The notes beneath the pieces are model-generated. The model did not search any database. It saw nothing but the letters and a program-made list of their open reading frames with translations, and was not told the DNA's origin. The position numbers were made by a program, and so were the translations under genes. This document shows, one piece after another, positions 1-64,000 of a DNA stretch of 64,000 nucleotides; within the stretch, counting starts at the first letter, position 1; each line of letters opens with the position of its first letter. This DNA comes from Perkinsela sp. CCAP 1560/9 (lineage: Eukaryota; Protista; Euglenozoa: Kinetoplastea): assembly GCA_965644495.1 (NCBI GenBank), contig CBFFSA010000004.1, positions 310,001 to 374,000 on the forward strand, read 5' to 3'.

Positions 1-293
1 GTGGAGGAAGGGAAGGACGTGTGGTGAGGGGCAGGAAGTGGGGGAAGGAAGGAAGTAGGGTGAAAGCTTTTTGGGTGAAGGATTGTGTGGAGAGTAGGAA
101 AGTTGGAAAAGTAGATAAAAACATTAGACTCAATACTAAAAAAAAATAAAAAAAACAATGGTTGGTTCAGGGGAAAAGAATGTGAAATGGTATTGTGAAT
201 AGCAAACGAGTTGGAGGTACGAAAAAAAATAAAACAAATTGTTTGGTTCACGGGGTCAACAGGATAAAAAGGGGAAAGGGGAGCATGCTTTCG

Positions 294-4255: not shown

Positions 4256-5865
4256 CTGTACCTCCCCTAGTTATCTGTCGCACCCCCACCCCCCCTAGTT
4301 ATTTGTCGCTTTTCGGCCCTTCGAATTTTTTTTTCCTTCGAACACCCCCCTAGTGATCTATCGCCTTTCTAAACAAAAATAAAAATTTATAAAATTAGAA
4401 GCGAAACTTCAATTCTTTTTTTCTGTTCTGCTTTCAGGATAATGGTTTTGCGTGGCGTTCTACGGTCATAATTGGAAAACAGGAGTCGGAGCTCGTTATC
4501 CCCTCCATCATCCCCTTCATCATCCCCATCATCGTCCGCTTCGGTATCTCTTCCATCATCCCCTTCATCATCCCCGCCCTTATCCCCTTCACTGCCGTCT
4601 TCGCCATCCCCTTTCTCTCAGAAGTCTCAGCCGTCTTCCCTTTCTCAGCGACCTATCGGCCCGCTTTCCTCTTGGATTAAAGCAAGGCCGCCTGCTCCAC
4701 GAGTGGGCCCTCTTATTACTCCACTGCACGAGAAATCTTCCGATGTTCCCACTGTGCTAGTTAAAACTTCTAAAGAACTAACTGCACAGAATACATTGTA
4801 TATGTCAGAGTACCCTGAAGACGAAGGAGCTTAGCGAATCCTTTTCGGTAACATTACGTACAATGCAACGCATCAAGGAAAAGGGTGCAACACATTGTCA
4901 GGCCACGATAACGAAAGCAGGAGGAAAAAGTAAGCGGCTGCGGAAATTTAATCACGACAGAGAAGACACCACCTTCTCTTGCCCCGCAACTATAAGAGCA
5001 GTCTCCGAAAGCAGATGAATGGGCACGTCTGCGACGAAAAGGTGCGCTGATTCCCTCCACCAAGCTTGACTTTCTTTGCGATAGACTTTTTCTTGTTTAT
5101 AAAGAGAAATTTCCTTCTGAAGATGTAATTTTCTGGAACGTGCAGAATATGCTTCTTATTATGGGACGAGCCAAATTTTCATCTCAAGCCTCACATAGCA
5201 CCCGCATATTTGCATGTTTGTACTATGCATATCACTACGTTCTAGTTCATGTGCGGGGTCATATTATAGCGATTTATGACAGTTTCAATGGGTACGCGTC
5301 TCAAATTTTCAATGATAATATAAAGAAATTTAAAGATCGTGTATGTGAACATTTGAAAACGGACTCTTCACCGTATTATAGTGCCATATTATAATAGTGC
5401 CAATGTGTTGTCCGCAGCAAGGTTCTGGTGAAAACAGTTGTGCAATTCACGTGATAAATAATATGTATTGCACCTTATTTGAAATCCGTGATATTGACAT
5501 TATTTCCCGTCGTGACATTTTTGAAAATTGGAGTCCGATAGCTCCCGATGTTTTACTTTAACCCATGGATGTAACATAATTAATATTTTAACTCTATAAA
5601 ATGTGTGAATTACTCGCTGGGCTTCTTTTAACCCGTAGGCGCATGCCTTCAGCTTGTAGTACCCTATTGGGGTAGAAAGGAATCTTCCTAGGCAATAAAG
5701 ATACCGTTTCTGTAACATTTCGTTCCCTCGTTTCTTTTGGCGACGGACCCCCCTAGTTATCTGCCGCACTTTGGCCCCCCTAGTTATCTGTCGCACCCCT
5801 ACCCCCCCCTAGTTATCTGTCACCTTTTCTCGAAAAGTAGCAACAGATAACTAGGGGGGGTACAG
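4256..5865 (+). mobile_element. non-autonomous pogo/Tc1-type DNA transposon carrying a Ulp1-like protease remnant
   Basis: TA-flanked TIRs CTGTACCYCCCCTAGTTATCTGT; internal YHYVLV..YDS..PQQGSGENSCAIHV fragments. Confidence 0.75.
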
Positions 5866-14289: not shown

Positions 14290-14726
14290 GACTCTGTCGG
14301 TAGAGAGGTCCAGGCAACTCGCCTCTCTTTACGCAGCCGGAGGGGCGTACTGCAACCGACTCGGTCCCAGTCGGTAGAGGTGGTCCAGGCAACTCACCAC
14401 CTCTTTACGCAGCCGGAGGGGCGCACTGCAACCGACCGCTGCAGAGTCACGCCCAGTGGTCCTCAAGGGAGGCCACCATGGCGCATAGCTCCCGGGAAGA
14501 GACAGGCGCGAGAAGAAGAAAGCCGGGGAGGGAAGAAAACTCACTCAAGGAGTGAGCCGGGGAGGGGTGAAAAGTCGGAAGTACGTCCCCTACTTCCACG
14601 ACAAAGAGAGACAGTTCCCGCTAGCCGTCAGCCGGAAACGGGCATTAAAAGGGAAAATGTATGTCCGTTTCCGGGAAAAGAAAGGAAGGGCTAGCAAAAT
14701 GTACAACAAGGTACATAAACTGTATC
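14290..14726 (-). mobile_element. SL-headed non-coding structured retroposon (SINE-like), copy A
   Basis: SL-like 14704..14726; 14446-14703 is homologous to 60849-61112; conserved hairpins. Confidence 0.6.
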
Positions 14727-15181: not shown

Positions 15182-15852
15182 ACCGAGTGGATGTGCGTTT
15201 TTTTGTATTTAAGTGGCCTTTAAAATGTTTTAAAAAAATGGGGGAAAAAGGGGAGATTTGAATCTCCCTTTTCTTCCCCCGAATTTCTATATTTTCAGAA
15301 AATTTATTACTGTACCCCCCTACTTATCTGTCACTACTTTTCGCGAAAAGGTGACAGGTAACTAGGGGGGATAGGGGTGTGACAGATAACTAGGCGGATC
15401 AGTGTGTGACAGATAACTAGGGAGGGGGTCTGTCACAAAAAAAGTCAGAACATGGAATTACAGAAACGGTTTATATTGACGCCGCGCTAAAAGTAGGTAA
15501 AACGTAGGTTGGTAAAACTACTAGGTAAAAACGGTTTTACGCTAAAAATAATATTACTTGCATTTGTCGAAAAGTCAGTTTCTCCCTTTATAAAACGGCG
15601 GGAGTATATAGGATATTGGTACTGTCAAGGGGCAAGTTTTTCCCTTCGTGGAGTGTCATGATTTAAAAAGGAAGTGATGCAGCACTCTAAAAATAGTGTA
15701 AATACGGGCATCTAAGCAAAAGCAAGATAATTTATGAGAACCTTTGTAGCCAAGAACGGAATTCGGCATAAAATGCACCAAACGATGTTTAGCTTCATGG
15801 AAAAAATGATTTTGACTCTGATATTGTGGGTTAATAACTTATGACGATTGTG

Positions 15853-30889: not shown

Positions 30890-32917
30890 CAGGGGGGGGT
30901 CACCAATTTCCGGGGGGGTCTAAAATTTGTGTCGTGTGAGCTTTTGACCTAATTCCTTCGTCATTCAACAGATCTTGAAATTCTAAGCTGTTTTGCGGTA
31001 TAAAAAGTCTCATAAAAAACCAAATCACTATATGAGAAATTTTTAAGGAAAAAGTAGGATTAAAATTCTGCAAATTATTCGAAATAAACCCCCGCTCACG
31101 AATAAGTGACCCCCCTCATTTTTAGTACAGGGGGGCGTCGGTGGGTTATCATACCACTTTTTCGTTCAAAATTTCGAGATCTGTACGTTTCCGCTGTTTT
31201 TAGCTCATTTTAAAATTTTAAAATTTAGTCAAAAAACATAATTGGTTTTTCAACTTTTTTTTCCAAAAATGACCAAATCACCATATCGGCTCCCAAAAGG
31301 GGGGCTTACGGATAGTGGTAAGGTTCTTTTGAAGATGAAACAGGCAGAAGGTGTTCCGATAAAACAATTATCCCGTCTCTAGAAGGATAATCAAAAAATA
31401 TCTGAACGAAAAAAAATCTAGCGGGGAATACACTTTGAGTCCTGTGACCATCTATTACAAGTGAGACATCCACAATGACACATCTATTACAAGAGAGACG
31501 TACATAGAAACATTAAAACAGGTAGATTTCCCCCCTAATAGTGTATTTCAACAGGATGGGGCACCGGCACATACTGCCCGTGCCTCCAAAGAGTATATTG
31601 AGAATCGAATGAGTGATGTTCTAAGAAACTGGCCCCCCAACTCGCCCGACCTTTCCCCCATAGAAAACGTCTGATCTATGGTCCAAGAGGCGGTAGACGA
31701 ACAAACGCCATCGGATAAACCTTCACTTATCCGATGTGTACGTGAAGCATGGTCTTCTTTAACTCAAAAAGTGATCGACAAAACAGTATTAAGTTTTGAT
31801 TCTCGACTTAAGGAGTGTATAAGATTGAAGGGCGAAAAAGTGACAAAATGGTAATTCTTCTCTAAATTGTGCGTATTCGTTTCTTTTTGTCTCATTTCTT
31901 CACGCGCAAAGTCCTTGTGTTGAGATCTGCAAAATGCAACAAAAATCAGCTCAAACGGACATTTGTACGAAAAAAAAGAGGGGGGTCACTTTTCGTGAGC
32001 GGGGGCTTATTACGAAAATTCATAATTTATGCTATATATTTGTTGATATTAGGAGAGATTCAGTCTACAAGTGTAACAAACTATTTATTTATGCCTAAAT
32101 CCCTTCGCCGACAGAGGCGCACACTTTCTACTCGACATTCTTCGTACCAGAAACGCATTATTTGCGTACATGAGGTAAAACAGGGGCGTTCCGTTACGGA
32201 AACTGCCTCCATGATGAAATGTTGCGAGGACACAGTGCATCGATGCGTCAAACAGCACCAAGAAAGTGGGGACGTATTGAGCAAAAGATACACTCGTGCC
32301 AATGCTACAGATAACGAGGAATTCAGAAAGATGATTTCTCTTATCGTGGATGGGGAAAATGAGAGGAGCCCAACTGGTTGTCCATCCTGGCGATGGGTTC
32401 ATCGACAGGTGGATCAAACACGGTTTCCATGCCCACTCTCATCCGTCAAAAGACCTTTAAAGAGGTGTGGGTATGTAAGTAAAAAAATGGTAAAAACACC
32501 CTACCTTACAACACAACACAAAGTAGCCCGCCTGGAATTGGCTGACCGTTTGGAAACCTTCACCCCTTATCAATACGCCCACATCTTATGGACAGAGGTA
32601 AAAAAAATTAAATGTGGTTTTTTTTCACGCAATATCTGGTACATTTCAAAAAAATCTAATTTGCCCCTGGAAGTACCAAAAGACGTAGAAAAATACTTTG
32701 GGGGAAAAGGGGTCCATATTTGGATGGCGGTAAGTCTTGAATGGGGGGTACCCAGAATCCATTGTTTTCATGAGTTTGCAGAAAATGAAACGGCTACGAA
32801 CGCAACCTTCCTTTCTGCGATGACAAAACGAAATAGATTCTTTAACTGGGTTAAAAGAAAGAAAAATGGACAGTTTTTACAAATTTTAGACCCCCCAGGT
32901 TCAAGTGCCACCCCCTG
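30890..32917 (+). mobile_element. Tc1/IS630-like element with truncated transposase (32091..~32880), hosting a nested element
   Basis: TA-flanked TIRs; HTH, KTPYLTTQHKVARL, ILWTE and IWMAVS motifs. Confidence 0.8.
31085..32009 (+). mobile_element. deleted Tc1-like element, copy 1
   Basis: TIRs AACCCCCGCTCACGAA; FQQDGAPAH...WPPNSPDLSPIENV* remnant. Confidence 0.88.
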
Positions 32918-35080: not shown

Positions 35081-35301
35081 CGGAAGTTTTAAGTGTAATG
35101 GGGGTGATGCATTGTTTCAAGTTTTAGTAAATTTGAAGCAAGGCCGTGCATGAGTTCATTTGTAATAAGTAAGCATGTACAAGTTGAGAAAAGTTTAAAG
35201 TACGGGAAAAAAAGGATTTTTTTTGAAAATTTGTGAAATTGCGAATATTGGTTCAGTTTAACCGCAAACCCCAATTTATAAAGCAATTTAATAGAATATA
35301 A

Positions 35302-36219
35302 TAAACCCCCGCTCACGAAAAGTGACCCCCCTCTTTTTTTTCGTACAAATGTCCGTTTGAGCTGATTTTTGTTGCATTTTGCAGATCTCAACACAAGGAC
35401 TTTGCGCGTGAAGAAATGAGACAAAAAGAAACGAATACGCACAATTTAGAGAAGAATTACCATTTTGTCACTTTTTCGCCCTTCAATCTTATACACTCCT
35501 TAAGTCGAGAATCAAAACTTAATACTGTTTTGTCGATCACTTTTTGAGTTAAAGAAGACCATGCTTCACGTACACATCGGATAAGTGAAGGTTTATCCGA
35601 TGGCGTTTGTTCGTCTACCGCCTCTTGGACCATAGATCAGACGTTTTCTATGGGGGAAAGGTCGGGCGAGTTGGGGGGCCAGTTTCTTAGAACATCACTC
35701 ATTCGATTCTCAATATACTCTTTGGAGGCACGGGCAGTATGTGCCGGTGCCCCATCCTGTTGAAATACACTATTAGGGGGGAAATCTACCTGTTTTAATG
35801 TTTCTATGTACGTCTCTCTTGTAATAGATGTGTCATTGTGGATGTCTCACTTGTAATAGATGGTCACAGGACTCAAAGTGTATTCCCCGCTAGATTTTTT
35901 TTCGTTCAGATATTTTTTGATTATCCTTCTAGAGACGGGATAATTGTTTTATCGGAACACCTTCTGCCTGTTTCATCTTCAAAAGAACCTTACCACTATC
36001 CGTAAGCCCCCCTTTTGGGAGCCGATATGGTGATTTGGTCATTTTTGGAAAAAAAAGTTGAAAAACCAATTATGTTTTTTGACTAAATTTGAATATGAGC
36101 TAAAAACAGCGGGAACGTACAGATCTCGAAATTTTGAACGAAAAAGTGATATGATAACCCACCGACGCCCCCCTGTGCTAAAAATGAGGGGTGGTCACTT
36201 ATTCATGAGCGGGGGTTTA
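35302..36219 (-). mobile_element. deleted Tc1-like element, copy 2 (inverted, near-identical to 31085..32009)
   Basis: direct reverse-complement match including the same in-frame stop. Confidence 0.88.
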
Positions 36220-36342
36220 TATTCTATAATAGATAATATTCTATAGATCTATTCTATAATAGATAATATAAAGCAATTTAATATGCATATCAAATACCGA
36301 AAGAAGTAACAAAACTTAGTGATGTGGTCTCCTCTTTTAATA

Positions 36343-39094: not shown

Positions 39095-39733
39095 TTAGCG
39101 CACGCCCCTACGGTACCAGTTTTGTACCGCGGCGTGCGCTATCTGGGCGTTCCCCTTTTGGATGGCTACCCCGATTGCCATGATAAAGTGGCTGAGGCAG
39201 CCATTCTTCTCGCCGGTGGCCTTCCGAGCGACCTGATTTAGAAACTGGAGGGTCCCGGGGCCGGGGACACCGTACGTGGTGAAGGCCAAAGGGAAGAAAT
39301 CCATTTCCCTGGCCCCCGCCATTTCCTCGTGAGTGCGCCTTTTGAGACGCTCTGCCTGCCTCACGGTGAAGGAGGGCTCATCTGCCTCCTTATCCACGTA
39401 GGACGGGGCCAGTGGGTTTACCACCGTCACGTCCACTAGGACTAGTTTCCGCCCCAAAAGGAAACAAATGTCCGGTCCCCGACCGTTATCGAATCTAGGT
39501 TCGACCAGGTCTAGGGAGAATCCGTACTGGATTAATAGGTTGCGGAAAGTTTCCTTGACCCCCTTGTGGCGAGAGGCTTGTGTCTTTCCCCGAACCTTCT
39601 TACAATCCATGGCGTGGACGCAGAACTCCTCATTTTTGAGGGCCGCGCCACACGCACATTGGATTTCTGGTTCGGAGGTGGGGGCCACCATGTACCGGAG
39701 TCTGGCGGCGGTCTCCCATTCGGGATCCCGCAT
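39095..39733 (-). mobile_element. CRE-like C-terminal CCHC + REL endonuclease ORF
   Basis: CxC...H...C, RH, GPDI...VDVTV, K, FFPLAFTTYG, AIQKGNA. Confidence 0.88.
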
Positions 39734-42465
39734 GTAGATATCATTTCATCGGGGCCTCGTTGCCTTCCTAGTTGCACCCACGCTGTTTTAGCAGGGCCTA
39801 CTCCTATTCTTAGGTTCGCGGAGAGGGCTTGTTCCGCTGTATCCTCAATCATACTCTGTAGATCAGCCTTGTTATCTGAAAAGAAAAGGAGATCATCAGC
39901 ATAATTTAGATCCGTAAGACGTGTTTCCCGCAGGCCTCTGCTCTTGGTACCTTTGGATGATAGAAGGATGCCATGGGATTTTGAATCAATAGCTTTGCTT
40001 AATATACGATCCAGAACCATTGCGAAGAGATAGGGAGCGAGGACATCCCCTTGAAGAATGCCGGTTGTAATGGGGAATGTTTCTGTTAAACCATATGGTG
40101 TTCGCACGACCCCTCGCATATTCCGATATACTGACATAATCATTTCTCGCAATTTCGGTCCAATGTGAAACGCCACTAGGGATGCATGAATGGCACTAAA
40201 TGAAACGGATGGAAAAGCTTTCGCAAAATCTACAAAACCAATGCACATCCCGTTTCCTCTTAATGCTTTTACTCGTGCTTCGTTGAGAATCGCCTGGGCT
40301 TGCATTGTCGAACGGTCAGGTCTGAATCCATATTGATTATGGCGAAGCACAGGCTCTACATACGGACGAATTCGTTGTAATATTAAACAGTTCATAAGTT
40401 TAACAACACAATTTACTAAGCATATGGGCCTCCAATTCTTTAAAAGAGTCAAGTCACCTTTCTTCGGTATCGGAACTTGTAGGACGTCACCCCAAACTTC
40501 CGGAGCCAATCCCGTATCGTAAACGTGGTTGATAATGCTGAGCAACCACTTTCTAAGATAATCATTATCAACGATGCACGCAAAAGCCTCCATGGGGATT
40601 TCATCCTTTCCCGGTGCCTTACCCCCCCCAAAGTGTGAAATTCCGCTTCGAAGCTCTTCCTCAGTGAAAGGGGCGTCCTCAAGTGTGTTTGTTGGAAGAT
40701 TCGTCTCTAAGAATCTTATATTGTCGTCGCCCCCTGTGTCTCCAGCAAAAGCTTCAAAAAACGTTTTTATCTCCGCCAGCCTCTGTCTGTTTGAGGTCCC
40801 CGGTATGTTGAAGTCTGCTCGATCAACTCCACATATTTCTTTTACTGCTCTCCATGGGCTGGCGTGATTTTTCTTCAGCTTAGATTCTAGGACTTCACAA
40901 GACCTAGTTATAGCATCCTCGATTGCTCCCCTGTTGTGTGATACTAGTTCATTAAAGTCCTTATGCCTTCTGCTTTGCATGAAAATGTTGCGTAGGTTAT
41001 CTGTTTCAGCACCTTGCAATCCTTCAACAGGTGCCTGTATATCAAGAGATATTTTTGTGATTGGTTTCGGAATTTCCTTTCCCGAAGATCGAAGGCAAGA
41101 GGCAAGAAGATCCCAGGAAGGAAGATCTTCTGTATGCAGTTGCGCTGCGACCTGTTCACAAATTCTGTTGTTAAACTTATCTGCATGTTCTGGGTTTGAT
41201 AATTGAAACCAGTGTATTTTCGATCTTTTGATGTTGGACGATATCTTCCATTTGATTCGAATCTCTGCTCGCACAAGAAAGTGCACTGTCGGCGTAGGAG
41301 CGGCAAAAACTTGATGATGTCGCAGAGCGGATGCAAAGCGTGAGCACACTGCAATGTGATCCAACTGGCGTTTAGCATCATTAGGCAATATGCATGTCCA
41401 TACTCGCTTGCTAGGGCATAAGGAGTGTCCTGATTTGCAATCTATCCCTTCCAAAAGCCCCTTCAACCTTTCAACAGCAAGTTCGTCTTCTTCTGTCGTT
41501 TTGCTGAAAGTGAGAGGTGCATTTAAGTCCCCAAGTAGAAGTGCGGGTCTTCGAGGGGCTTTGCCTACTGCTTCGTGAAACGCGTTTGTCAAAGAAATAT
41601 CAAACTCTTGTTTGGCCTCCTCTGGGGAGTCACGCGTCGGCCCATATGCGTTGAGCATAAAGGCTGACCCTCCTTCGATGTTGAACTCGCCGGCCATTAT
41701 CCTATCATTTACTTTCCACGCTTTTATTGGCTCTTGCGTGATGAACCCCATACCGTTATACCCGTTCACTGCAGACATAAGGTAGACGAAAAAGATTTTA
41801 TTCCCGTGTCGAAGCTTGCGCTTTAAAATATCAAATCCTTCGCCAGAAGTAAAAGTAAACCTTGTCTCCTGGAGAGCCAGTATATGCAAGTTGGTTTGTG
41901 CCATGTATCGCACAATCTCGTGCAATCGAGCAGAAGCTTTCAGTTTGAAAACGTCGTCACCTTCAAGTTTCAATGATGTCGTATTAAGAGTGCCTACAGC
42001 CAGACACTTCTTCACAGCAGACCCTTTCGGGTCGTCGTCGCGTAGGGCATGCTTGCCACACAGTACCCTAGTTTTCCGTGCTTTTCTACGGTTGTTCGAA
42101 CGCCCAGGTTTTCGAATGCGTGCTCCGCATAACACGATTCGCGAATCATACGGCGGAAAGGGAAGCGTTTCCGATCGCTGGTGGTACTTTACCCGCCAGC
42201 GACCTAGCTGAAAGAGGAAACCAGGTCCTCGTTGAGTTACAGTGCCCTTCCAAATCCGAAACTCCGCACTGCTCGCGTATCTCCAGCAGAGTGCGATGTT
42301 GTAACCTGGGCGAAGAATTTTACTAATGCTCATCACTGCACGGGAGCGAAGTTTAGCATGCCCGTCTGACCCCAACATCGGGTCAAACAGAGCACCCCGA
42401 CCTAACGTGGACCTAACCAGAAGGTTAATAATTCCTAGCTGTGCAGGCCCTGACGCCTCCGCCAT
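39734..42465 (-). mobile_element. APE endonuclease + reverse transcriptase of a non-LTR retrotransposon (RTE/ingi-like), 3' truncated
   Basis: GTLN, LQETR, AYGPT, GDLNA, LDHI; KAPGKD, PKKGD, WRPI, QYGFRP, DFAKAF, QGDVLAP, YADD. Confidence 0.93.
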
Positions 42466-42542
42466 ATTTTTGAAAATGTTCAAAAAAGCAAAGGTCTTCA
42501 AAAAAACAAAGGTCTTCAAAAAAACAAAGGTCGGCAGTGTAT

Positions 42543-42665
42543 AATTTTCTTTTTTAGGCTCTTCGTTAAACGCGGTGGTTGCTTTCAACTTAGAAGTCAC
42601 TCATGCTGCGCGCTTCGCGTTGAAAACTACCGCCGCGTTTAACGAAGAGCCTAAAAAAGAAAATT
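42543..42665. repeat. ~120-bp palindromic mini-element
   Basis: aattttcttttttaggctcttcgttaaacgcgg and its inverse. Confidence 0.8.
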
Positions 42666-44573
42666 TAGCCTGGAAAACGGAAAGATTATAGCCAAAAATA
42701 GCCGAATTTCGGGTACAAATGGGGTCATTTTCGCATATTTTTGCTCTCAGAGCACTAAATCCGACATTTGCGCGTGGGAAATCACTCGCAGGCATGAATG
42801 AAAGCCTACCGAACGTATTGGGTAGAGAATACGACTCCAACCATACCATTCTTTCGACACAAAAATGCCCCTTTAGGTCCGAAAAATACTTTTTCACCTT
42901 TTTTAGTCAAAAGTGGGTCATTTTGAGGGCCGCACCACAGTTCGAAGAAGTGATACCTTGCGAAAACAACTGCGTAGAAAGCTAGTGTAGGTCCCAAACT
43001 ATCAAAATACAATAGGGGAAACGATTTTGGAAAAATATTTTTTTTGTCATTTTTTTCGCCAAGTTGAATTTTTTTTCGAAAAAATTTTTCCGAAAAAATC
43101 CGAACTTGGCGGACCCGTCCTGCGGATACGCGGGGGGGTCACCCCCGGGTAGGGGGGTGGAAAATGCGCGCCAAGACCCCGGCTACCCTTTCTGCGGTTT
43201 TTTTTCGAAAACTAATTTTTTCGAAAAAAATTGATCGACCATGCCCCCCCCCCTGGACCCCCCATTTTTTTCAAAAAAATTTTTCAGTTTTGGACCACCG
43301 GAGCCCCCTTTTATATTTTTTTCTTCTATTATATTACTGTGTTCCTCTTTATATTTTCACTGTTTTTGTTCACTTTTTTTTCAATAATCGAGTGTAGAGC
43401 GGTAGTTTTACAACCACCGCAATTATAGTTATAAAAAATAATGAAAGAAAATGGTAGTTGGTAGGCGTCAGTATCATCAGCGGAGGGGGTGCAGACGGTA
43501 CCTGTAGCTCGCTGTCGAACGGTGGCAACCAATGGCGACCGGTTGCGAACGCTGTAGGTAATTTTTCGAAGATCGAAGGGTTTACCGATTCATTGGAAGA
43601 TCAGTCGGACAGGGGGTGACGTGTGAGAGATAACTAGGGAGGAGGTACAGTACTTCGCTTGTATAGTTACTTATGCCCGCAAATGACCACATCACGGAGT
43701 AAGTGCCTTTTTTGCGATCACCCGATCAATTGTAGGAAAAGAAGGGACTTTTAACAGCATGGGTCCGAAATAGTGTATAAATTAAAGTTTAGTTTATCAT
43801 GAACTTGTAGTGCAGTTACCGACGTTATCTTTACCCGCCCCACATCTAGGCGGTGCCGCACGCTGGTGCACTGATCATTTCAAAAGCGTACAGTACGTGG
43901 CAGGAGAGTTCCTCTGATGTACAGTACAGTATAGCATGCAAAGACTCGCCGTACAGATCGGTGGAGGTCAGTGTGGATCGGAGGAGATCGCTGGAGATCA
44001 TTTTTGAACGCCCAAAGGGACTACCTGCAGACTCTCCATTTCAACAGCGGCGAAAATTGGTACAAAAATTCGTACCACAAAAAAAAATCGCGCCGCTTTG
44101 CGCCGCTGTTCTTCTGAACGATGCGTCAAAATTGCGCTTAAGTGGCCGGGTCAAACGGTTGCGCATAAGTAGAGGGGGACAGTATAACAAAAATGAAAAT
44201 TTATAATTATATTTATAAAAATTAATGAGAGAGGGTAGGTAGAAAGACGTGATATACAACACTTTAGCTGATAGGATGAACCAATTTGTTTCACTGTAAG
44301 GATAGATTGCGGGTAAACGAAGATGATAATTATGAGATGTTAACGATAAATATTTGCTTAAGCACCCATAGAGTAATGAAGGGAGGACTAAGGTACGAAA
44401 GGCAGATCTGCACTTTCTGGAGAAAATTCTTCCTGTCCCTTCGTCTCCACAAACGTGATTATACGCCAATTTCTACGAATTTCTTCTTGATCAGCGATGC
44501 GCTGCGGGGAAAAATAAAAGCCAAGTCCGCTGTCCGAGGTGAGGTCCAAATGTTTCGGGGACATAGAAATAAT

Positions 44574-54156: not shown

Positions 54157-55200
54157 ATGGCATGGAATGCTAGAGACGCACAGCAGCTAGATTGCCAGGC
54201 TAAGGTTGGGGTCCTGGAAATGTTATTAGACACTGTACAGGTGTTGATGCGAGTTGTTCCTTCCGCTCAGGACCTCTATGAAAAATTATCTTCGCCAGAT
54301 CTGACAATGAAAGAGATGCATCAGACCCTACGCGTTGCATTTTCTTCTCTTGATACTGATATTGAGACAGCTAAGCGTGCCCGTGTACAAGACTCCGAAG
54401 TTGGGTGGAGTTACGCGTTGGATTTCAGACAAATTTTTATCAATTCAGTGCCTTGCACAGGGGCTCCCAACTGTTGCTCGGTTCATACAACGTCTTGCGC
54501 TGGTCCCCGCGTGGACACCCGTTCGCGACAGGGAGAGTCGACGCATCTCTCGGTAAGTGAATTTTATAATATTATTAGTTTGGTCAAATTGGTTTCTACG
54601 GAAAGTTTCAAATTCAATTGTAAAATAAAACGGGTAATATGCAGTACAAATGTAGGTTGAAAGTGAAGTTTTTCGATATTTTTCGAATTCATTTTTTTTG
54701 AAGGAAATATGCAGGAGAAATAATTTCAATAGGAATTCGAACTTTTTTGGAAACATACTCCCTGTATTTCGGACCTTTTTCACTTTCTAAATGCTCTGTG
54801 CAACGTGTACTACTTTGGCCTATTTGCTGCCAAAGAAGGGTTTGGGTGTTTCTTGTCGTATCAAGCATCTATTGGAAACTCAAAATCAACTCTTCAAGCC
54901 TACCGCAGTGCCTTACTATTTTATCAAGAGTGTCAGGATTTCGACCTCGAGGCAGGTGAGCGCCCTTGGGCGTCAGACCGCCTCATACTTCGGGCAGTGG
55001 ACGGGGCTGCCGTGGAGGGGGAATATAACAGAAGGCGAAAATGTCCACGAGGATACGTATCAGAAGGTATGCTCCAGGAGCTTGTACAATGGCTTCAACC
55101 AGGAGTCAATGGACCGCAGCTCGCAAGAGCATTTCGTGTACAGTATTACGCTGCCCTTCGATCCTGCGAGGTGGAAAAATATGTGGAGGAGATCTACGCG
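54157..55200 (+). mobile_element. VIPER/DIRS-like retroelement fragment (gag-like + tyrosine recombinase N-half)
   Basis: STLQAYRSAL...PW...RG...YYAALRSCEV (first catalytic Arg). Confidence 0.6.
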
Positions 55201-55253
55201 GCGAAGGCTCGTGGTCGCACCTTCTCATCCGGCATGACAAAACAAAGCGATAC

Positions 55254-57103
55254 TCAACAGACAGATGCTAGGGGTAGAGATGCTAACTTGTCAACGAATC
55301 GCTGCATTTTCGGAACTTGGCCCTCTACCCATTTTTGCTCTAGGACTGGATCCCGAGCTACGTAAGCCCCCAATAATTTCTGGCCATCGTAGCTATGCGT
55401 GATCTCCGTGTCTTTGAAGGCTGAGAATTGTTCCGCTTGATGTGTACTCACCTGGCATTTGGCTTTATTTATTTTCAGACCGACTTTGGACAGCGAATTC
55501 AAAAGGAAGGAGAATGCATCCCGAACGTGTTCTGGGGCACCTAGGAGGGTGACATCGTCAAGATAGGCCTTCAGTTTCACCCGATTTGCGAAGCGCCTCA
55601 CTGTATCATCTAGGATTCATGTATTCATGAATGCCTCACATGTATCATCTAGGACATCATGTATTCCGATGGAAAAGAGGAATGTCGTTCGCCAAAGGGA
55701 TCCCCTTGGCGAACACCGCGTGTGCTCGCGACGGTGTCCTGATGCGGGAGGATGAGTCGCCCGGGCATTGTGTAGCAGAAAAAGAAGTATCCAAGTAGGG
55801 GCTTGAATTTGGCCCCGGACTTTAAGGCGCTTCGTATGCTGTCTCGATAGAGACAATCGAAGGCGTTGGCGACATCTACTGACATAAGAACATTGGATGG
55901 GTCCGCGCTGAAATCTCGGCGGGAGTTGACATGATGGCAGTCGTGAGCGGTTCCTACCCCGTACTGAGTACCACGGAAGTGATTAGGAAGGAGGTGAGAT
56001 ATCGCTTGTGTTACGAAGGAACCCGCTAGTTTCACAAATAGTTCACCCAGAGCAATTGGCCGGCACGGGGGAAGGGTCTGTTCTTCGTCGCTTTTACGGA
56101 TTAGTATAAGCTTCGAAGTTGTTAAGGCCTCACGGAGATCAGACGGTAAGGAATTTTCGACAATACCGTTAATGATCCAAAGGAGACAATGGTTCACTTC
56201 CCGGTCCTCTAATAGAGGGAAAAGAAGTTCTTTCGTCCATCCGGAGGGACCCGGAGCGGACCCACGAGCTTGCCTTCGATTGGCTTCCTTGATCGCCTCG
56301 ATTTTGACGTCAGCCCTTGGTACTGCGTCTGAGTCAGACTCCATTTTGGGTCCTCTCGGGTGTAGATGTTCCGCCACGGCCTTGGCTTGTTCTCTTGTGA
56401 GCGGCTTTCTCTCCTTGGTGTCCAGGGCTCGTGCAGCTTTGCCGATTGCCCCCACCTTTAAGAAACGTAAGGCCCGGGTGGTTGGGTCACCGTGCTGGGA
56501 CCCGAGATCGCAACGTTTTTTGATGTATTCCGGTTCGGCCTGCGTTGAGCGAAGTCGAAGTTCCTTTGCAAATTGTCTTTGAGTCAGCTTTTCGACTGGC
56601 AGAAAGAGGTAACGCTTGACTGCAGAGAGCAGCCGCCAGGCTTTAGTTTCTTTTCCGGAGAGGGTTGAGGAATCAAAGCCGGCACATATGTTTTGACACA
56701 CATCCTTCCATCCTGGCAGTTGGGGAAAAGATAATTTCCTGAAGGTGGGTCTGTGCAGGAGGCTTAGATATCGGTCCAAATGGGTTTTCCCACATGCAGC
56801 CGGTGGGCGAACAACGCTAGTGAGAGGGAAGCCTTTTGCTTCTTTCACTAACTCAGGTGTTGTCGTCTCAATGGGATTCGGATCGGACATCGAGCCCGCG
56901 TGGGTCTGGATAGTTGCGAGGTCCAACGTACCTGTAGGCGAGAACTTTTTTCCTGGGGGACGGCCTCGCTTCGTTCCTGGACCAGGATTGCTCTCGATGC
57001 CACCTCGAATGAGTTGGGTGCGCACTTGTGCCTTGGACCAGCCCGAGTTGGCGATTAGGCTTTTGGTCGGAAGGAAACAAAAAAATCCAAAAATCCAAAT
57101 CAT
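55254..57103 (-). mobile_element. CRE-clade retrotransposon ORF2 (2A-like peptide + RT), frameshifted and 3' truncated
   Basis: SAPGPSGW, RPIALGE, QYGVG, DVANAF, GVRQGDP, AYLDD, GLKIN..KC, LLG. Confidence 0.9.
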
Positions 57104-57362
57104 TCCGGATCGCTCCGGATGGTCACTGGCAAGCCAGACCCTTCACAGACAGATTTGGAAGTTCCGAGGCCGACGTCCTCTACCAGTTTCCGCTTGTCCA
57201 AGGCGGCACCAACGTGCTGTTGCCAACACGTTGCGTCGACGAACTGCACGCCAACACGGCTTACCCAAGAGGTGTAAGCCGGGTTAGGGAGCTGGTTCCC
57301 TGAGGGGAGGGTCCGGGACGGTCCTCCGAGTACTGGGCCTAGTCGGTTATCAGCCCAGCCTC

Positions 57363-59007
57363 TTAGAGTGAGGCCGCCAGGAATATTGCGATGAGTGGGT
57401 TTGAACTCGCCGTCTGAGCACCATGTGCTTCAAACTTTGAGTTCTTGCCACTCCGCCACCTCCGCTCCTTTGGTGCGCACGCCGGGAGACGAAGGAAACA
57501 CCAAACGGTGCCCATACGCTCCGAATGAAAGGCGCTCCATGCGCTACCCATCTCCACATCGATGCCTAGCTGCTCACACAGTAGTGCTGGGAGGCATTGA
57601 GGTTCGAAATTCATTGGCACACGCACCGCGTTTTTCGAGGAGTGTATTCCATAAATCTGAATCGGGTCACCCGTGTCCTCTAGATCTCCGGGGGGGGAGG
57701 TGAAGCGAGGCTACCATATTAGCAGACTCGGAGAGCCCCCCTAAGCGCAGGTTCGGTGGAAGAATAGCCCCAGAGGAACTTTCCATGAGGGCGATCATGT
57801 GTTTTCGTAGGCCAATGGCTTTGCCGACTTCGGTTTTCACCTCTTCAATCCGTGTCACAGGGCTCAAACCGTGGATACGAACCTGTCCAGATTGTTGTGG
57901 ACCTAACGAGAGAGACACTGAGATGCCAGTATCAGTAGAAAGGGGTTCCTCCAGATCCTCATCCACCTCGATGTCTTCCGGGAATTCGATATCGACCCAG
58001 TTTTTTGATCTCATCTGGTTGTTTCGAAGCCTATCTTCGCTGGAGCGCCTTTCTCGCTGCCGAAGAGCTGCCAAGCCTGCGAAGTGCCTCGCTGCTAGCT
58101 CCACTAGCTCGTCCTCCGATTCTCTTAAGAGCGCCTTGTAGGCTTTTTGCTTTGCGAAGAGCAGATATTGACCTCGTCGTGCCAAGGATTTTTGGAGTTT
58201 CACCACATGAATTTCTTTGTAGTGAGTGTCTAGTTGTAGTTTGTCGTTGAAGGTTTTGTGGCATACCGAGCACGCGTGTCCTTCGCGCTCGATGACTTCT
58301 AGAGATTTCTGGGTCCGAATGAATTCCGACGCGCACGCCTGAAGGTATGCATGCTCCAAGTTACGCCGAAGTAAAAATTCCTCGAATTCCAGCTCGATTT
58401 TCTGTGTCTCGGCTGTGTGTTGTTTAAGAGCCCTTACCCAAGGACGAGGGTCGAACACTTGTTCGGCTTCCGGGGGGATGAACTTGCTTTTTACGAGTTG
58501 CAGCCGATCGTCGAAGCTTAAGATTTGTTTGGACGGGAGGGTCCGTTTTTGCCTTAAGTTCGTTACACCGTCTGCGTTGCCGGACCGCACTGCTGATGCG
58601 TACGTCGGAGGTGTTTGGCGCTTGGGTCCGGGGTTGGGCCACGCCGAGCTTTCGCTCCGTGGGTTGATGAATGAGTTTACATTTCTTTGGGGAGTGCCTG
58701 TTCCCCGCGGGGGTCGGGAGGGTTTGAAGCCAGATCCTCGAAAACAAGGCGGGCAACAAGTGAAACTGCTGCGTCGAGGCCCAAACATAGCCTGACACTG
58801 GTCGCATTTGCGTCGCGGGTTCTCGTGGTCCTCGCGGCGTATTAGTTTGTTGCAGAGGAGATTCACTTTCTCTTTCATTTCTTCCATTCCATCCGATTCG
58901 TCTTGTGATTCAAAACATCGGAGGCAGGTGCGGTGGGTTGGCTTTTCTGGCTTGAACGTCCGGCGACAAGAGCTGCATCGTCTCTTGCCCACCTGCCAAG
59001 GAAGCAT
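57363..59007 (-). mobile_element. CRE-like element ORF1: two C4 zinc ribbons, C2H2 finger and ubiquitin-like domain
   Basis: CxxC..CxxC twice; CSVCHKTF..L..HYKEIH; continues into the 57363..57626 frame after a C8 run. Confidence 0.65.
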
Positions 59008-59027: not shown

Positions 59028-59080
59028 CAACAAGGTACAGAAACTGTATCTTTATCGTTAAAGACGTCTTTATCGTTAAA
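59028..59080 (-). other. spliced-leader-like exon with duplicated 5' part, 20 nt upstream of the ORF1 ATG
   Basis: TTTAACGATAAAGATACAGTTTCTGTACCTTGTTG on the minus strand. Confidence 0.8.
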
Positions 59081-59250: not shown

Positions 59251-59433
59251 CTGTAATAATGCCTTTGAAGTACAAATTGCAAATTATGCGTAGAAACCAC
59301 ACGCTCGGTGCAAGTGGTTATATACTTGTAGCTGTCGTACACACTTCGTTTATGAGAACAGCCGACTACTACTGATAAAAACGTACGCATACTACATTTT
59401 GTACATTACAGTATAATAAACTCATAGCAGGTA

Positions 59434-60195
59434 ATGAATGAGCCTGTTGATAATCTTGAATACGGAACGGTGTATGGAACCGCCTTTGCCCACCAGCCTT
59501 ATCCCATGCAACTACGGACTCTTGACCCTATCATGGTAGCAAGCCGCCTTCACCTAAAAACTCTTCATGATGTTGCAACTCAACGAAATTATATGTGGGG
59601 AAAGAAATGCATCACCGTGCTTACTAGTAGTCAAGAATTTATGCAGGCGACTAACTTTGAAGCCTTTCACGGTAAACTTGGATCAGGATCAGGATCTAAG
59701 TGGCGGGATCATCTAGTTGAGCTTTCTTCGTACGGAGTATTGCGTAGAGTACATGATTTTCGTACCGATTCTCGTCTTTATCTGCGATATTTTGAGGTTC
59801 CGAAAGATGAAGTTTCATCACGAAGCATCGTGGATGGTACTTTGATCAACGAAAGATGTGCGACTCCTCCCAGTCTAAACTGCCCTGGTCTAGCTGAGGT
59901 GATTCATGTTACATCATGCTTTCCGAGTGGATTTTTTTTGACAGCAGACATTCGCCACTTTTTCCATCAAATTCGGATCCCAACGGCTGTAGGTCGTCTC
60001 TTCTCAATAAAATGTAAGGATGAAACTTTCGAATTACAAGTTCTTCCAATCGGATTTTCGTGCGCACCCTATCTTGCGCAATGCCTTGCGTGGATAGTGG
60101 TCTTGGAAGCTTGCCCTACAGGTTATGAGATGGTACATGTCCGAAGCGCATCTGACCCACCTCCGGGGACATGTTCTTTAGGACGCCTTTTATGA
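59434..60195 (+). mobile_element. TATE/VIPER/DIRS-like reverse transcriptase fragment
   Basis: YFEVPK..R.IVD, ADIRHFFHQI, LPIGFSCAPYLAQ. Confidence 0.8.
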
Positions 60196-60321: not shown

Positions 60322-60830
60322 TTAAAATTCGGTGAGATTAATCTCCATTCCCAAAACGTGCGCTTCTTGCGTTGGGGCGAGAGTCATATCGTCCAAGGCC
60401 AATCTCGTACTTATCGCTCTTGATCTAAATTCTGAGCAGCGCCTCTCTAAGTCTTCTTTCGTATTTGCGTAAATGAAAAAATTGTCAACCCATGCTAGAC
60501 CTAAACCACGAACAAGACGGTTCGATGCGCGTTGCGCTATGGCCGGAGCCCATGACCAACCCATGGGCATCGAGGTGAATTGTACCGAAGAGTATGTACC
60601 GCGCGCCCGGCCTAGGTGAGCTCCAAAGAAAGGACGTATAGAGGGGTGCATTTCAAACTGGTAGAAGTAACTTTTTGCGTCTGTTTGAGTCATCCAGTTT
60701 GCGCTCAAAATCTCGCTAATAACCGTTTGAATGCGAGGTAAGTGCATATCGGGAGGCTTTTCGAACGCGCGAATTAATTTTCTGCAATCAGCCACGAGTC
60801 GAAGTCGGGCATCTTTCTTGGGGACCGTAA
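60322..60830 (-). mobile_element. TATE-like reverse transcriptase core
   Basis: FTVPKKD.RLRL, DAKSYFYQF, MPMGWSWAP, AWVDNF. Confidence 0.85.
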
Positions 60831-61112
60831 AGTTTCTGTACCTTGTTGGTACTTAACCTTAGTTTATCCTTTCTTTCCCCGGCAACGGGCATACTCTTAC
60901 TGTATTTTCATGCCCGTTGCCGGCCGGCGCTAAGGCTGGAACTGTCCCCCTTTATCGCTGAAGCAGGGGAAGCGTCTCCATCCCTTCACCCTTCCCCGAC
61001 TCACTCCCCTGGAGTGAGTGCTTCTCCCTCTCGGCTTCTTTCCTCCCGACCCGTACCTCTCCGAGAGGGCTAGGCGTCACGGTGACCTCCCTTGAGGACC
61101 ACTAGACGCGTC
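60831..61112 (+). mobile_element. SL-headed non-coding structured retroposon, copy B
   Basis: agtttctgtaccttgttg head; homologous to 14446-14726(-). Confidence 0.6.
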
Positions 61113-61710
61113 CCTCGCTGCCCGCGAGAAAGAGGAAATGTTAAAAATGGCAGAAAATGACAATGCAATTTACATTTGCACGACTGGTAAAATATTTTAC
61201 TTGTCCTTTACAAAAAAATAGGAAATCTAAGTTTTCAGCATTTTTTGGAAATTTTGATACCCCCGTGACTTTGCACATCAGGAAATTTTCAAAAACAGAA
61301 AAATGTGCAAAGTCAGGGGGGATGCAAAGTCAGGGGGTACTAACGGTAATTTTTTTCTGAAAAATTAGGAATGGCGTTTATAGAAATTAAAACTGGTCGC
61401 CAGTACATCCAGTGAGTGGTCATCGCTCATCTCCCACAGCCTTTGGTAAAATAGACGAGACCGTGTGATAGGGGCGATCTCGCCGTCGTTCCGGTAAACT
61501 CTTGTACTTGGTGGTTTACTTAGCTGCGTACGTGGGATTGAACTGTCTTCGTTGTGTTGCTTATGGGCAACTGCTGCTATTTCAGCGGAGTTTTGTACTA
61601 ATATAGGCTCTGGATTCGGTTCAATTAATGTATTCTATCAAAATTTAAATTTCCTATTTTAACTGGAAGATTATCTACCAAAAACTTTCGCAACGTCAAT
61701 GCAGCACTTT

Positions 61711-62664
61711 TCATAGAAGTTCGGTCGCATCTTGTAGCCCCAGAGCCATTGCCACCTCTAGCCTGGGAAGATACAGGGGTATCCATAAAATTTCGAGATC
61801 TTTGTGTTTCGCTAGGGCTTGAATTATCGATAAAGGAGCGCCTTGGGATAGAAGCGACACCGATGCCCCCCTTTTGACAGAATGCGCCGATAGAGAGGGG
61901 TTGACGCATTTCAAGACCGCGTTTGCTCTGGCTGTCGTAAGATTCTAAATTTTTTTCTCCAAGCTTAGAACCTCCATCTGTGTCTTGAAAATGCGAAATT
62001 CGTTGGCATTGCACTTTACCGGCACGGCCGTCCCCACTCGGAAGGGGTCCCCTTTTTGAACGGGAAAAACTACGGGTTTGATTCTCTTTTCCTCGTTTAC
62101 TATTTCCAAGTCCTTCCTTCGGAGATGAACGACATCGTCTATCCGACTGCATGTTTTCCACGCCGGGAGTAATCCTACTCCTTCTTGCCGGAGCATCCAT
62201 TCGTAGGCCTCGTCTATTTCTTCCCTCTTGGCGGGAGGGGCTTGGTGTTCGGGAATTAGTGCCCCTTTCCGACAGAGTGCTCGCATATAAGATTTTACTA
62301 CCGTGGCATCCATGGACCCTCCTGTTCGAAAGATTATTTGGATTAAGAATTTTGCGTAAGTGTGTGCTGTTTGCGTACTGATGAGAGGTTTCTGCGTTTG
62401 CGGATGTACCGTTCTTTGCTTCGCTTCTAAAAAACACACCACGCACCACTCCTCGGTTGGGCAATCCTCTCCCAATGTTTCCTTCCACGTCAGAAACTGC
62501 TTGTACACGCTTGATAGATGATTCCATCGACCTTCTGATTTTTCGTTGAGCAGTTGTTTTTGACCCGGTTCTATCAATTCCCGCACGCTTATATCGGGAA
62601 TCAAGGCTCTGGTCTCGCAGTTTCCTTCTATCCGATCGAGAAACAGCCCTGTCGTGTGTGTCAT
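61711..62664 (-). mobile_element. tyrosine recombinase of a TATE/DIRS-like retroelement (frameshift near 61945)
   Basis: WKTCSRIDD (R), KGDP, AHSVKRGA (HxxR), AKH, Y. Confidence 0.85.
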
Positions 62665-62846
62665 ATTTTTTGTTTTTGATCTCGCTATGATACCAGTTAT
62701 GGCCCGTCGGCTTGTGGATGGCTGAGTGTACTCCTCGCGATGATGATAAAAAGTATCCGCCTTCTGTACGGTTGGTTCTTGGTAGTCTTCTTCCTCCCCT
62801 AAACGAGTTAAAGAAATTTCTATCAGTGTTTTTTAGCGAAAACGTT

Positions 62847-62925
62847 CAACAAGGTACAGAAACTGTATCTTTATCGCTAAAACTTTATATTTATAGAAAC
62901 TGTATCTTTATCGTTAAAACTTTAT
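62847..62925 (-). other. tandem spliced-leader-like exons upstream of the recombinase ORF
   Basis: AAGTTTTAGCGATAAAGATACAGTTTCTGTACCTTGTTG (39 nt) preceded by a partial copy. Confidence 0.8.
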
Positions 62926-63399
62926 ATTTTAAATTTGAAGCGAAAACGTTCTACTGGTACAAAGGAAATATGAAAATTTTACATTTATTGAAAGAGACGG
63001 AAGACCAAAATTACTTACTCAAGTTTCAAGAACACGAATCATAATTTGAAGAAATTATGTGCCCCGGAGGCCAAATTTCAAAACGTGGACTATTAGATGA
63101 TGATGCATTGGGCCTTTTGACTCCGAAAAGTTATGGCCCCTCAACTCCCCAAACGGGTAGCCCGAATACGTCTGGCGGCGTATCCGGAGAGCCAGCCATA
63201 GGCTATGGCTGACCTCCGCTTGGAGAGAAATTAGATTTCCAAATATTATCCTCCAATAAAGGAAGCCAATAATTAACAGCTCGGATAGGAGGGGTTCGAT
63301 ACTCCCCAACATGGTTTAACAAGTTAAACCACGACCCTGCCTAAATTTAAATTGTTGTGTGGATACTGCCCTAGTTTTCTGACGTCTTGTTGACGACGG

Positions 63400-63790
63400 G
63401 AAGCTCGGCGGGAAGGGCTAAGCTCGGAAGGATGCGCGGCGGGGACCGCGGGGAGAAGCATGGCGGGGAGAGCGGTGGGGAGAACGGCAGGGAGGGCGGC
63501 GGGGGACGAGAAGGGGGGCGAGTAGGGAGCCAACGGGGGGGGGGGCGCAGGGAGCGAGCAAGGGGCGAGCAGGGAGCAAACAGGGTGGCGAGCAGGGCGG
63601 CCATCAGGGGGCGAGCAGGGCCGCGGGCAGGGCGGTGCACGGAGGGCGAGGAGGGCGGCACACGATCGGGGGAGGGCGACGCACGAGGGGGGAGGGAAGA
63701 GCGCGAGCAGGGGCGGTAAACAGGGGCGAACAGCGGCGGCGAGCAGGGCGGGGAGCAGGGGACGCGCATGGTGGCGGCGCTGGGGGTTAA
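63400..63790. repeat. GC-rich low-complexity gcgagcaggg-like repeats
   Basis: direct reading. Confidence 0.7.
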
Positions 63791-64000
63791 GGGGGAACGA
63801 TGAAAAGAAAGTTTACGCCTAAGGGCATCATCAAAGTAAAAGCAAAAAAAACAAGGTACAAAAAATATTCCTTAAGTTCCGTTTCTACGGTACTTTCACC
63901 TCCTTTATCCCAAATGTTTGATCAAAATATTTTTGTTTCATTTTTCAAAACGGTGCCATCAGTGAGGGCATAGCACAAACGTTTTTAGATTTTTACATTT

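Follow-up and report, generated by a model that had tools for sequence, protein, structure and literature searches.

Within the 64,000-nt stretch of DNA analysed here (the window), single-exon LRR-family genes and methyltransferase genes lie on the minus strand among many mobile elements. At least eight of the single-exon LRR-family genes occupy that one strand between 824 and 48650, interspersed with Tc1/DDE, pogo-like and IS1595/Merlin-like remnants, which makes the region unusually rich in DNA transposons for a kinetoplastid; a 930-bp inverted repeat with 98% identity (31084-32012 and 35299-36220) flanks a Tc1-like transposase frame. Close to the end of the window, a broken tyrosine-recombinase (YR) retroelement is preceded by two partial copies of a spliced leader (SL) exon, and these lie between two copies of a 12-bp direct repeat (Table 1). 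Along the minus strand, a T-rich tract and an AG (62952-62951) are followed by the 12-mer, 20-nt filler, SL nt 4-27, filler, SL nt 4-38, the 12-mer again and the YR frame.

Table 1 Features of the SL-YR locus and of the other SL-headed sequences in the window
Feature	Position	Strand	Remarks
Upstream 12-bp direct repeat AACGTTTTCGCT	62939..62950	-	immediately preceded by AG 62952-62951 (putative native splice acceptor), itself after a T-rich tract; candidate target-site duplication
20-nt A/T-rich filler	62919..62938	-	from upstream repeat to first SL copy
Two 37-bp tandem units	62855..62928	-	35/37 identical; each consists of 11 nt of non-SL filler and a partial SL
Second SL copy	62895..62918	-	nt 4-27 exact (24/24), one mismatch if extended to nt 30; lacks the 3' end
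SL exon copy, nt 4-38 of the 38-nt exon	62847..62881	-	34/35 match, one mismatch; 3' end intact
Downstream 12-bp direct repeat copy	62835..62846	-	abuts the final G of the SL
YR frame, 373 codons	61711..62832	-	R230-K260-H317-H343-Y354 conserved; in-frame stop at codon 296 (61947-61945)
RT N-terminal remnant	61410..61526	-	tblastn E 0.004 against Diplonema YR-RT polyproteins
Later insertion into RT	60831..61385 (right end approximate)	+	SL nt 21-38 heading a repeat also present at 14455-14724, with a MITE-like hairpin after it
RT core	60322..60831	-	41% identical to Diplonema YR-element RT, E 4e-35; RVT_1 E 6.7e-11
SL nt 3-38 (36/36) and upstream copy nt 4-17 lacking the 3' part	59028..59080	-	heads a non-LTR element, presumably CRE-like (to ~55260)
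SL nt 16-38	14704..14726	-	heads the second copy of the 60849-61113 repeat family

In a tree of 36 sequences chosen from 120 listed matches, the PRMT7 encoded in the window fell inside the kinetoplastid clade (support 100/99) and was placed near Perkinsela on a long branch (89/90, unstarred); its top named matches are trypanosomatid and Perkinsela proteins. As judged from these protein sequences, the host is a kinetoplastid. The SL reference exon came from locus L001, a metagenome contig not shown to be conspecific with the window DNA, which gave the only match to the motif in metagenome_contigs (viral_contigs and genome_contigs gave none). There, a 38-nt exon (26-63, minus strand) runs into a GTATGAG intron; exons of kinetoplastid SL RNA genes start with AAC and end at a TTG/GTA donor. 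A 5S rRNA gene (E 1e-21) lies near it at 450-568 on the plus strand, opposite to the SL RNA gene, a linkage that passages of PMC7859406 give as the usual arrangement; the tRNA-like stretches between the two genes received no ARAGORN call. The motif core is common to the euglenozoan leaders tabulated in PMC3795323. An Rfam scan of the window returned no SL family match, and the rows listed from the read runs include no SL gene array of the organism itself. Window copies match the L001 exon at 34/35 and 36/36 positions, and contigs of X5, a run with the same species label that is presumed to be RNA, carry the SL followed by a pyrimidine-rich UTR and an ATG; one X5 contig is shaped like a hairpin-primed SL cDNA. 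On the basis of the L001 exon match and the mRNA-like X5 contigs, the motif is this organism's SL, as an earlier note on this DNA had assumed.

The YR frame has 289 relatives at E <= 0.001, the named ones coming from Papus, Apiculatamorpha and Diplonema, and matches PF00589 at E 0.0023, below the curated cut-off. Across a 40-sequence alignment (A1), R230 is invariant and K260, H317, H343 and Y354 are each kept in at least 90% of sequences. The YR open reading frame reported earlier is present, with an in-frame stop at codon 296 out of 373; P0001, a copy of 96% identity, has its break at this position too. The RT N-terminal remnant (61526-61410, E 0.004) and RT core (60831-60334, E 4e-35) are collinear with it on the minus strand, as the earlier note had read them, and are separated by a plus-strand insertion with about 65 residues missing. 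That insertion carries the SL match at 60831, which had been counted among the SL-like heads; the match is above chance but lies on the plus strand and interrupts the RT of this element. No RNase H part follows the RT core in its frame, and the element is truncated; between 60250 and 64000 we found no split direct terminal repeats of the form A1...B1-A2-B2, the 3' end of the element being missing. Neither the 23 clusters looked up nor an alignment search for longer proteins yielded a named TATE or VIPER, and the 5' flank, as far as it is visible, carries no telomeric array, the 3' end being absent. The former label 'TATE-like' applies only in the broad sense of a VIPER-like YR element, and in its sequence features the element fits a decayed, broken VIPER-like YR retroelement. 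A second, divergent YR/RT element (54733-55260 and 59428-60195, plus strand) has no SL match and is apparently split by the insertion that we label CRE-like.

Members of the closest sister family (P0196, 57%, and P0002) align with the YR frame from residue 2 at 62832 (tblastn), with an N-terminal alignment score that 15 of 2,000 shuffles reached, Met1 of both relatives being a gene-caller start. Protein homology reaching 62832 places the SL 12 nt before the codon aligned with the first Met of the nearest relatives, and not about 180 nt from the YR frame as had been proposed. Upstream of 62832, none of 157 tblastn queries matched, so that neither gag nor other element homology was found there. 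A Pro-rich low-complexity frame lies at 63324-63871; gag is generally highly divergent. Close full-length relatives sit on contigs of 4.2-4.6 kb, which perhaps leave no room for a separate gag.

The SL copy at 62847 is real, although the exon measures 38 nt instead of the 39 first reported and the copy holds 35 of them. The partial second copy is likewise present, at 62895-62918, but it is cut at its 3' end and lies within a 37-bp duplication that includes 11 nt of non-SL sequence. Trans-splicing transfers the intact 3' end of the SL exon. Because the upstream copy lacks this end, and because the filler is common to both units, the pair is not a recycled leader of the dinoflagellate stacked type, contrary to the original reading of stacked relicts at this site; the tandem is the product of slippage or stutter at the DNA or cDNA level. 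True stacks do occur: one X1 contig (joint 59051 to 62847), at a single-copy depth of 46, holds a 3'-intact SL, 18 nt and a 5'-truncated SL that also keeps its 3' end, and is a stacked relic from elsewhere in the genome. Such a relic, together with the weakly SL-like context of the upstream AG, would suit two rounds of mRNA recycling at 62847, perhaps with the older relic decayed into the AG site. We regard this as extremely unlikely here, given the missing SL 3' end, the non-SL filler within the duplicated unit and two 12-mers that have stayed identical while the supposed old relic would be much diverged. The genomic copies also lack the flank of an SL RNA gene or orphon: on the 3' side, the copy at 62847 is followed by AACG and not a GTA intron, the one at 59028 by TTTC, and the one at 60848 by GTA with no further intron match.

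Absent from the earlier note is the exact 12-mer that stands on both sides of the SL insert at a spacing of 104. Repeats of 12 nt were found at 3 of 189,000 shuffled anchors and at 893 of 126,000 real anchors; the latter form 22 clusters, one of them the 62847 locus, and most of these anchors lie in tandem-repeat regions. The repeat at 62847 is beyond chance expectation. A flanking repeat of this kind occurs at only one of the six SL sites tested, namely this one. The SL is joined directly to the repeat with no 3' poly(A) between them; since the poly(A) is lacking, as expected under internal priming, the insert cannot be called an ordinary retroposon insertion. Target duplications in the ingi clade are conserved at 12 bp in the accounts given in PMC3820030, and the L1Tc target consensus described in parts of PMC5814959 is cut at G^A, as is found at the 62847 repeat.

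The SL at this locus likely originated by reverse transcription of the YR gene's trans-spliced mRNA. As the best explanation of its position, we propose that the SL was copied in place from that mRNA by a LINE-type reverse transcriptase acting at the gene's own splice site, a proposal that we hold to be about equally probable to be right or wrong. The YR gene would be transcribed on the host polycistronic strand and trans-spliced at AG 62951, and an ingi-type endonuclease would make two nicks 12 bp apart, directly after this AG. With the nicks placed just after the gene's own acceptor AG, the DNA 3' end freed there would be the complement of the 12 nt that open the mRNA body and could pair with them, and only the SL would be copied. 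Priming at the start of the mRNA body would yield the order AG, repeat, SL, repeat, as observed. Copying would stop near the methylated cap, the 5' junction would be closed by filler and slippage would duplicate the 37 bp. Reverse transcriptases stall at methylated cap nucleotides. All four copies in the window that reach the 5' part of the SL start at nt 3-4, which fits the four methylated nucleotides of the SL cap 4 described in passages of PMC4783070. A candidate source of the machinery is an endonuclease-RT non-LTR element within the window (39532-42600, minus strand, a frame of 1022 codons), not shown to belong to the ingi clade.

Several observations count against copying in place. An empty-site allele was not recovered, with no joint skipping the 104 bp in X1, X2, X3, X4 or X5, whose contigs drop rare variants. 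The 88-nt flank upstream may not be native element DNA: none of the 157 queries matched beyond 62832, and a high-copy repeat begins 88 nt upstream, truncated at 63038, its remainder not being found within the window. The pyrimidine tract before AG 62951 is weak, its pyrimidine content falling at the 84th percentile. In addition, the 3'-cut copy at 59067 is of the same kind as that at 62895 and has no flanking duplication, which, with a flanking repeat at one SL site in six, also speaks against this account. Finally, the 30 nt ending in AG 62951 resemble the SL 3' end more closely than do 2455 of 2500 AG-ending 30-mers, a likeness better explained if the SL were the 5' end of a dispersed SL-YR-RT retrocopy. 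On that alternative, the DNA end at an unrelated target would prime abortively on the cDNA by microhomology at the SL 3' end; copying of 12 nt, a jump and two restarts at the cDNA end would yield both the 12-bp repeat and the partial SL. The target end is indeed SL-like, to a degree that 45 of the 2500 30-mers reach. The lack of gag or element homology upstream, the similar stutter at 59067, other SL-headed insertions at new sites without duplications, and the template switching of L1Tc RT described in parts of PMC5814959 all agree with it. Conversely, a repeat of exactly ingi size that starts at G^A would be a coincidence, and no poly(A) run of at least 9 occurs within 5 kb downstream, though the 3' end has been overwritten by other elements; the missing gag is a weak argument, since the 4.2-4.6 kb relatives may have no room for a separate one. 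We consider a dispersed retrocopy, the main rival, quite possible, while somewhat expecting it to be wrong. Copying in place and retrocopying share the trans-spliced mRNA as template.

Eight SL matches in the window score at least 14, against a null mean of 0.005 (200 shuffles), at 304, 5695, 14704, 59028, 59067, 60831, 62847 and 62895. The weaker match that had been noted at 63850 did not hold up, its score of 12 lying within chance (null mean 0.34), as do matches at 44340 and 17299. SL-bearing copies in the window head mobile elements, and the earlier claim that the SL heads three unrelated repeat types is borne out by the YR element, the non-LTR element at 59028 and a non-coding repeat family; by comparison, none of ten host ORFs tested has an SL above background within 400 nt, some start positions being approximate. 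The 59028-headed element, for which we assume a CRE-like affinity, lies outside an SL gene and comprises a C2H2 zinc finger ORF and an RT ORF with a GIESNPGP motif, which we take to be 2A-like; a very high-copy MITE-like insert at 57069-57491 interrupts it and is absent from an X2 contig, and an atlas search with its CRE-like ORF gave only leads under 0.9. The non-coding family (60849-61113, plus strand, and 14455-14703, minus strand) is about 270 bp long and 73% identical between copies, and contains a perfect hairpin of 14 bp. At the start of each copy stands a 5'-truncated SL, and the next 10-15 nt differ between the two, which suggests separate retroposition events of an SL-headed SINE-like RNA. 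Matches to SL nt 11-30 at 304-323 and 5695-5714 (plus strand) and near 15470 (minus strand) depart from the SL over the following 8 nt, the last of which is nevertheless a G (SL position 38). The 304 copy has CAG at its end, and those at 5695 and 15470 stand at the head of a single MITE-like family; the three are perhaps relics of greater age or a variant SL.

The earlier note had further suggested that the SL might serve as a universal junction or priming handle. In target-primed reverse transcription the 5' end is copied last, so an SL lying there is not the primer. That the YR family carries the SL as a constant and functional 5' component, serving as junction or priming handle in replication, is in our judgement very unlikely, even though the SL abuts the likely start of the YR frame and CRE-clade elements of trypanosomatids target SL RNA genes according to sections of PMC12278014, so that partnerships between elements and the SL do exist. 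The SL-YR locus and its junction stand at single-copy depth in the read runs, the other YR/RT element of the window (54733 and 59428) lacks an SL, the YR copy is decayed and the element structures set out in parts of PMC6681497 carry no mention of an SL. The SL copy is most likely a by-product and not a working part of the element.

Read runs place the locus in genomic DNA. X1 behaves as DNA, with even intergenic cover and very high MITE depth. Run kinds are unrecorded; the assembly may itself derive from X1, which is hence not independent of it. In X1, record 1 (61427-62873) has a depth of 44.7, and record 8 (62852-63030, depth 48.4) spans the tandem and overlaps record 1 by 22 nt. No contig extends 31 nt to either side of the SL-YR junction at once, and the upstream flank is uncovered in X3 and X4; these gaps, with the possible dependence of the assembly on X1, would allow for cDNA or chimeric reads having placed the SL in the contig. 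Such an artefact has a next to negligible probability, given equal depth on both sides and a 22-nt contig overlap in a DNA-like run, the presence of the SL-YR junction in X3, which is another sample, and a point mutation in the SL copy relative to the true exon.

Contigs falling on a 271-bp stretch are concentrated on the SL (137 in X1, 77 in X4 and 105 in X3), and 12 of 24 pieces shown, from 322, are contigs of at least 200 nt in which an SL is embedded between flanks that do not resemble the window. Downstream, the loose ends are T/C-rich with an agreement of 0.58-0.85 (18 of the 36 rows shown), as expected for diverse 5' UTRs. Dispersed SL copies are likely present at many loci in the genome, and the widespread reverse transcription of trans-spliced RNAs proposed earlier looks real, with SL copies in unrelated flanks in DNA-like runs. 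Summed SL depth (1.2-1.6e5, against 45-48 in X1) was rejected as a measure of copy number, as it sums overlapping short contigs and would include any SL gene array. Among the loose ends behind 59060 and 62876, all five runs hold a recurring family in which a conserved upstream sequence passes into the SL at nt 7-9. This family, contained in an 825-nt X5 contig with a depth of 1180, represents an abundant RNA or a repeat that has a piece of the SL in its interior.

Should SL copies prove numerous, the genome itself provides a tag for mRNA that has been reverse-transcribed. If insertion in place does occur, a gene with an SL relic need not have moved, and the signature of an AG with a short flanking repeat can be sought in existing assemblies. 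A broader claim, that in this early-branching kinetoplastid LINE machinery writes the SL back into genes at their own trans-splice sites and that genomic SL copies are partly in-place edits, is one that we put forward tentatively and think unlikely; if true, hundreds to thousands of genomic SL copies would in part be such edits rather than dispersed retrocopies. Setting aside older subscription papers on SL orphons and CRE/SLACS, the literature that we searched does not describe a kinetoplastid in which several classes of element have dispersed copies headed by an SL, and an SL inserted in place is not described there either. Related statements come from portions of three papers: trans-spliced TE transcripts in Hydra (PMC12220107), about 80 Papus contigs with a partial SL motif, possibly reflecting similar copies (PMC7859406), and RT-driven intron loss proposed for the host's lineage (PMC11613528).

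Among known systems, the locus resembles VIPER and TATE, as covered in sections of PMC6681497, in having YR then RT on one strand with catalytic residues kept, and differs in that no gag, split direct repeats, RNase H part or telomeric target was found in this broken copy, which is nested in other elements; TATE in L. braziliensis inserts in telomeric hexamer repeats. As in CRE, SLACS and CZAR (passages of PMC12278014), SL exon sequence adjoins a retroelement, but those elements insert into SL RNA genes, whereas 62847 and 59028 lack an SL intron or SL-gene flank, and the element at 62847 is a YR element. The 12-bp flanking repeat recalls ingi/RIME, L1Tc/NARTc and SIDER, and the first cut at G^A the consensus of L1Tc, whose RT switches templates (parts of PMC3820030 and PMC5814959); unlike ingi-clade insertions, the insert here consists of SL and filler, with neither element body nor poly(A), and L1Tc's own transcripts are described without an SL in the relevant part of PMC5814959. 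Closest in kind are the relict DinoSLs of dinoflagellates, which lie in genomic DNA upstream of coding sequence and mark retrogenes there (passages of PMC5585692), and with which our read contigs share one true stack. By contrast with those described, the present copies belong to a kinetoplastid, head mobile elements and none of ten host ORFs, form a tandem by DNA-level stutter and, at 62847, carry a 12-bp flanking repeat that suggests insertion in place. If that suggestion is true, the mRNA made after such an event (new SL, 12 nt, filler, old SL) would mimic a stacked relic, and some dinoflagellate 'retrogenes' counted by their SL relics could be native genes.
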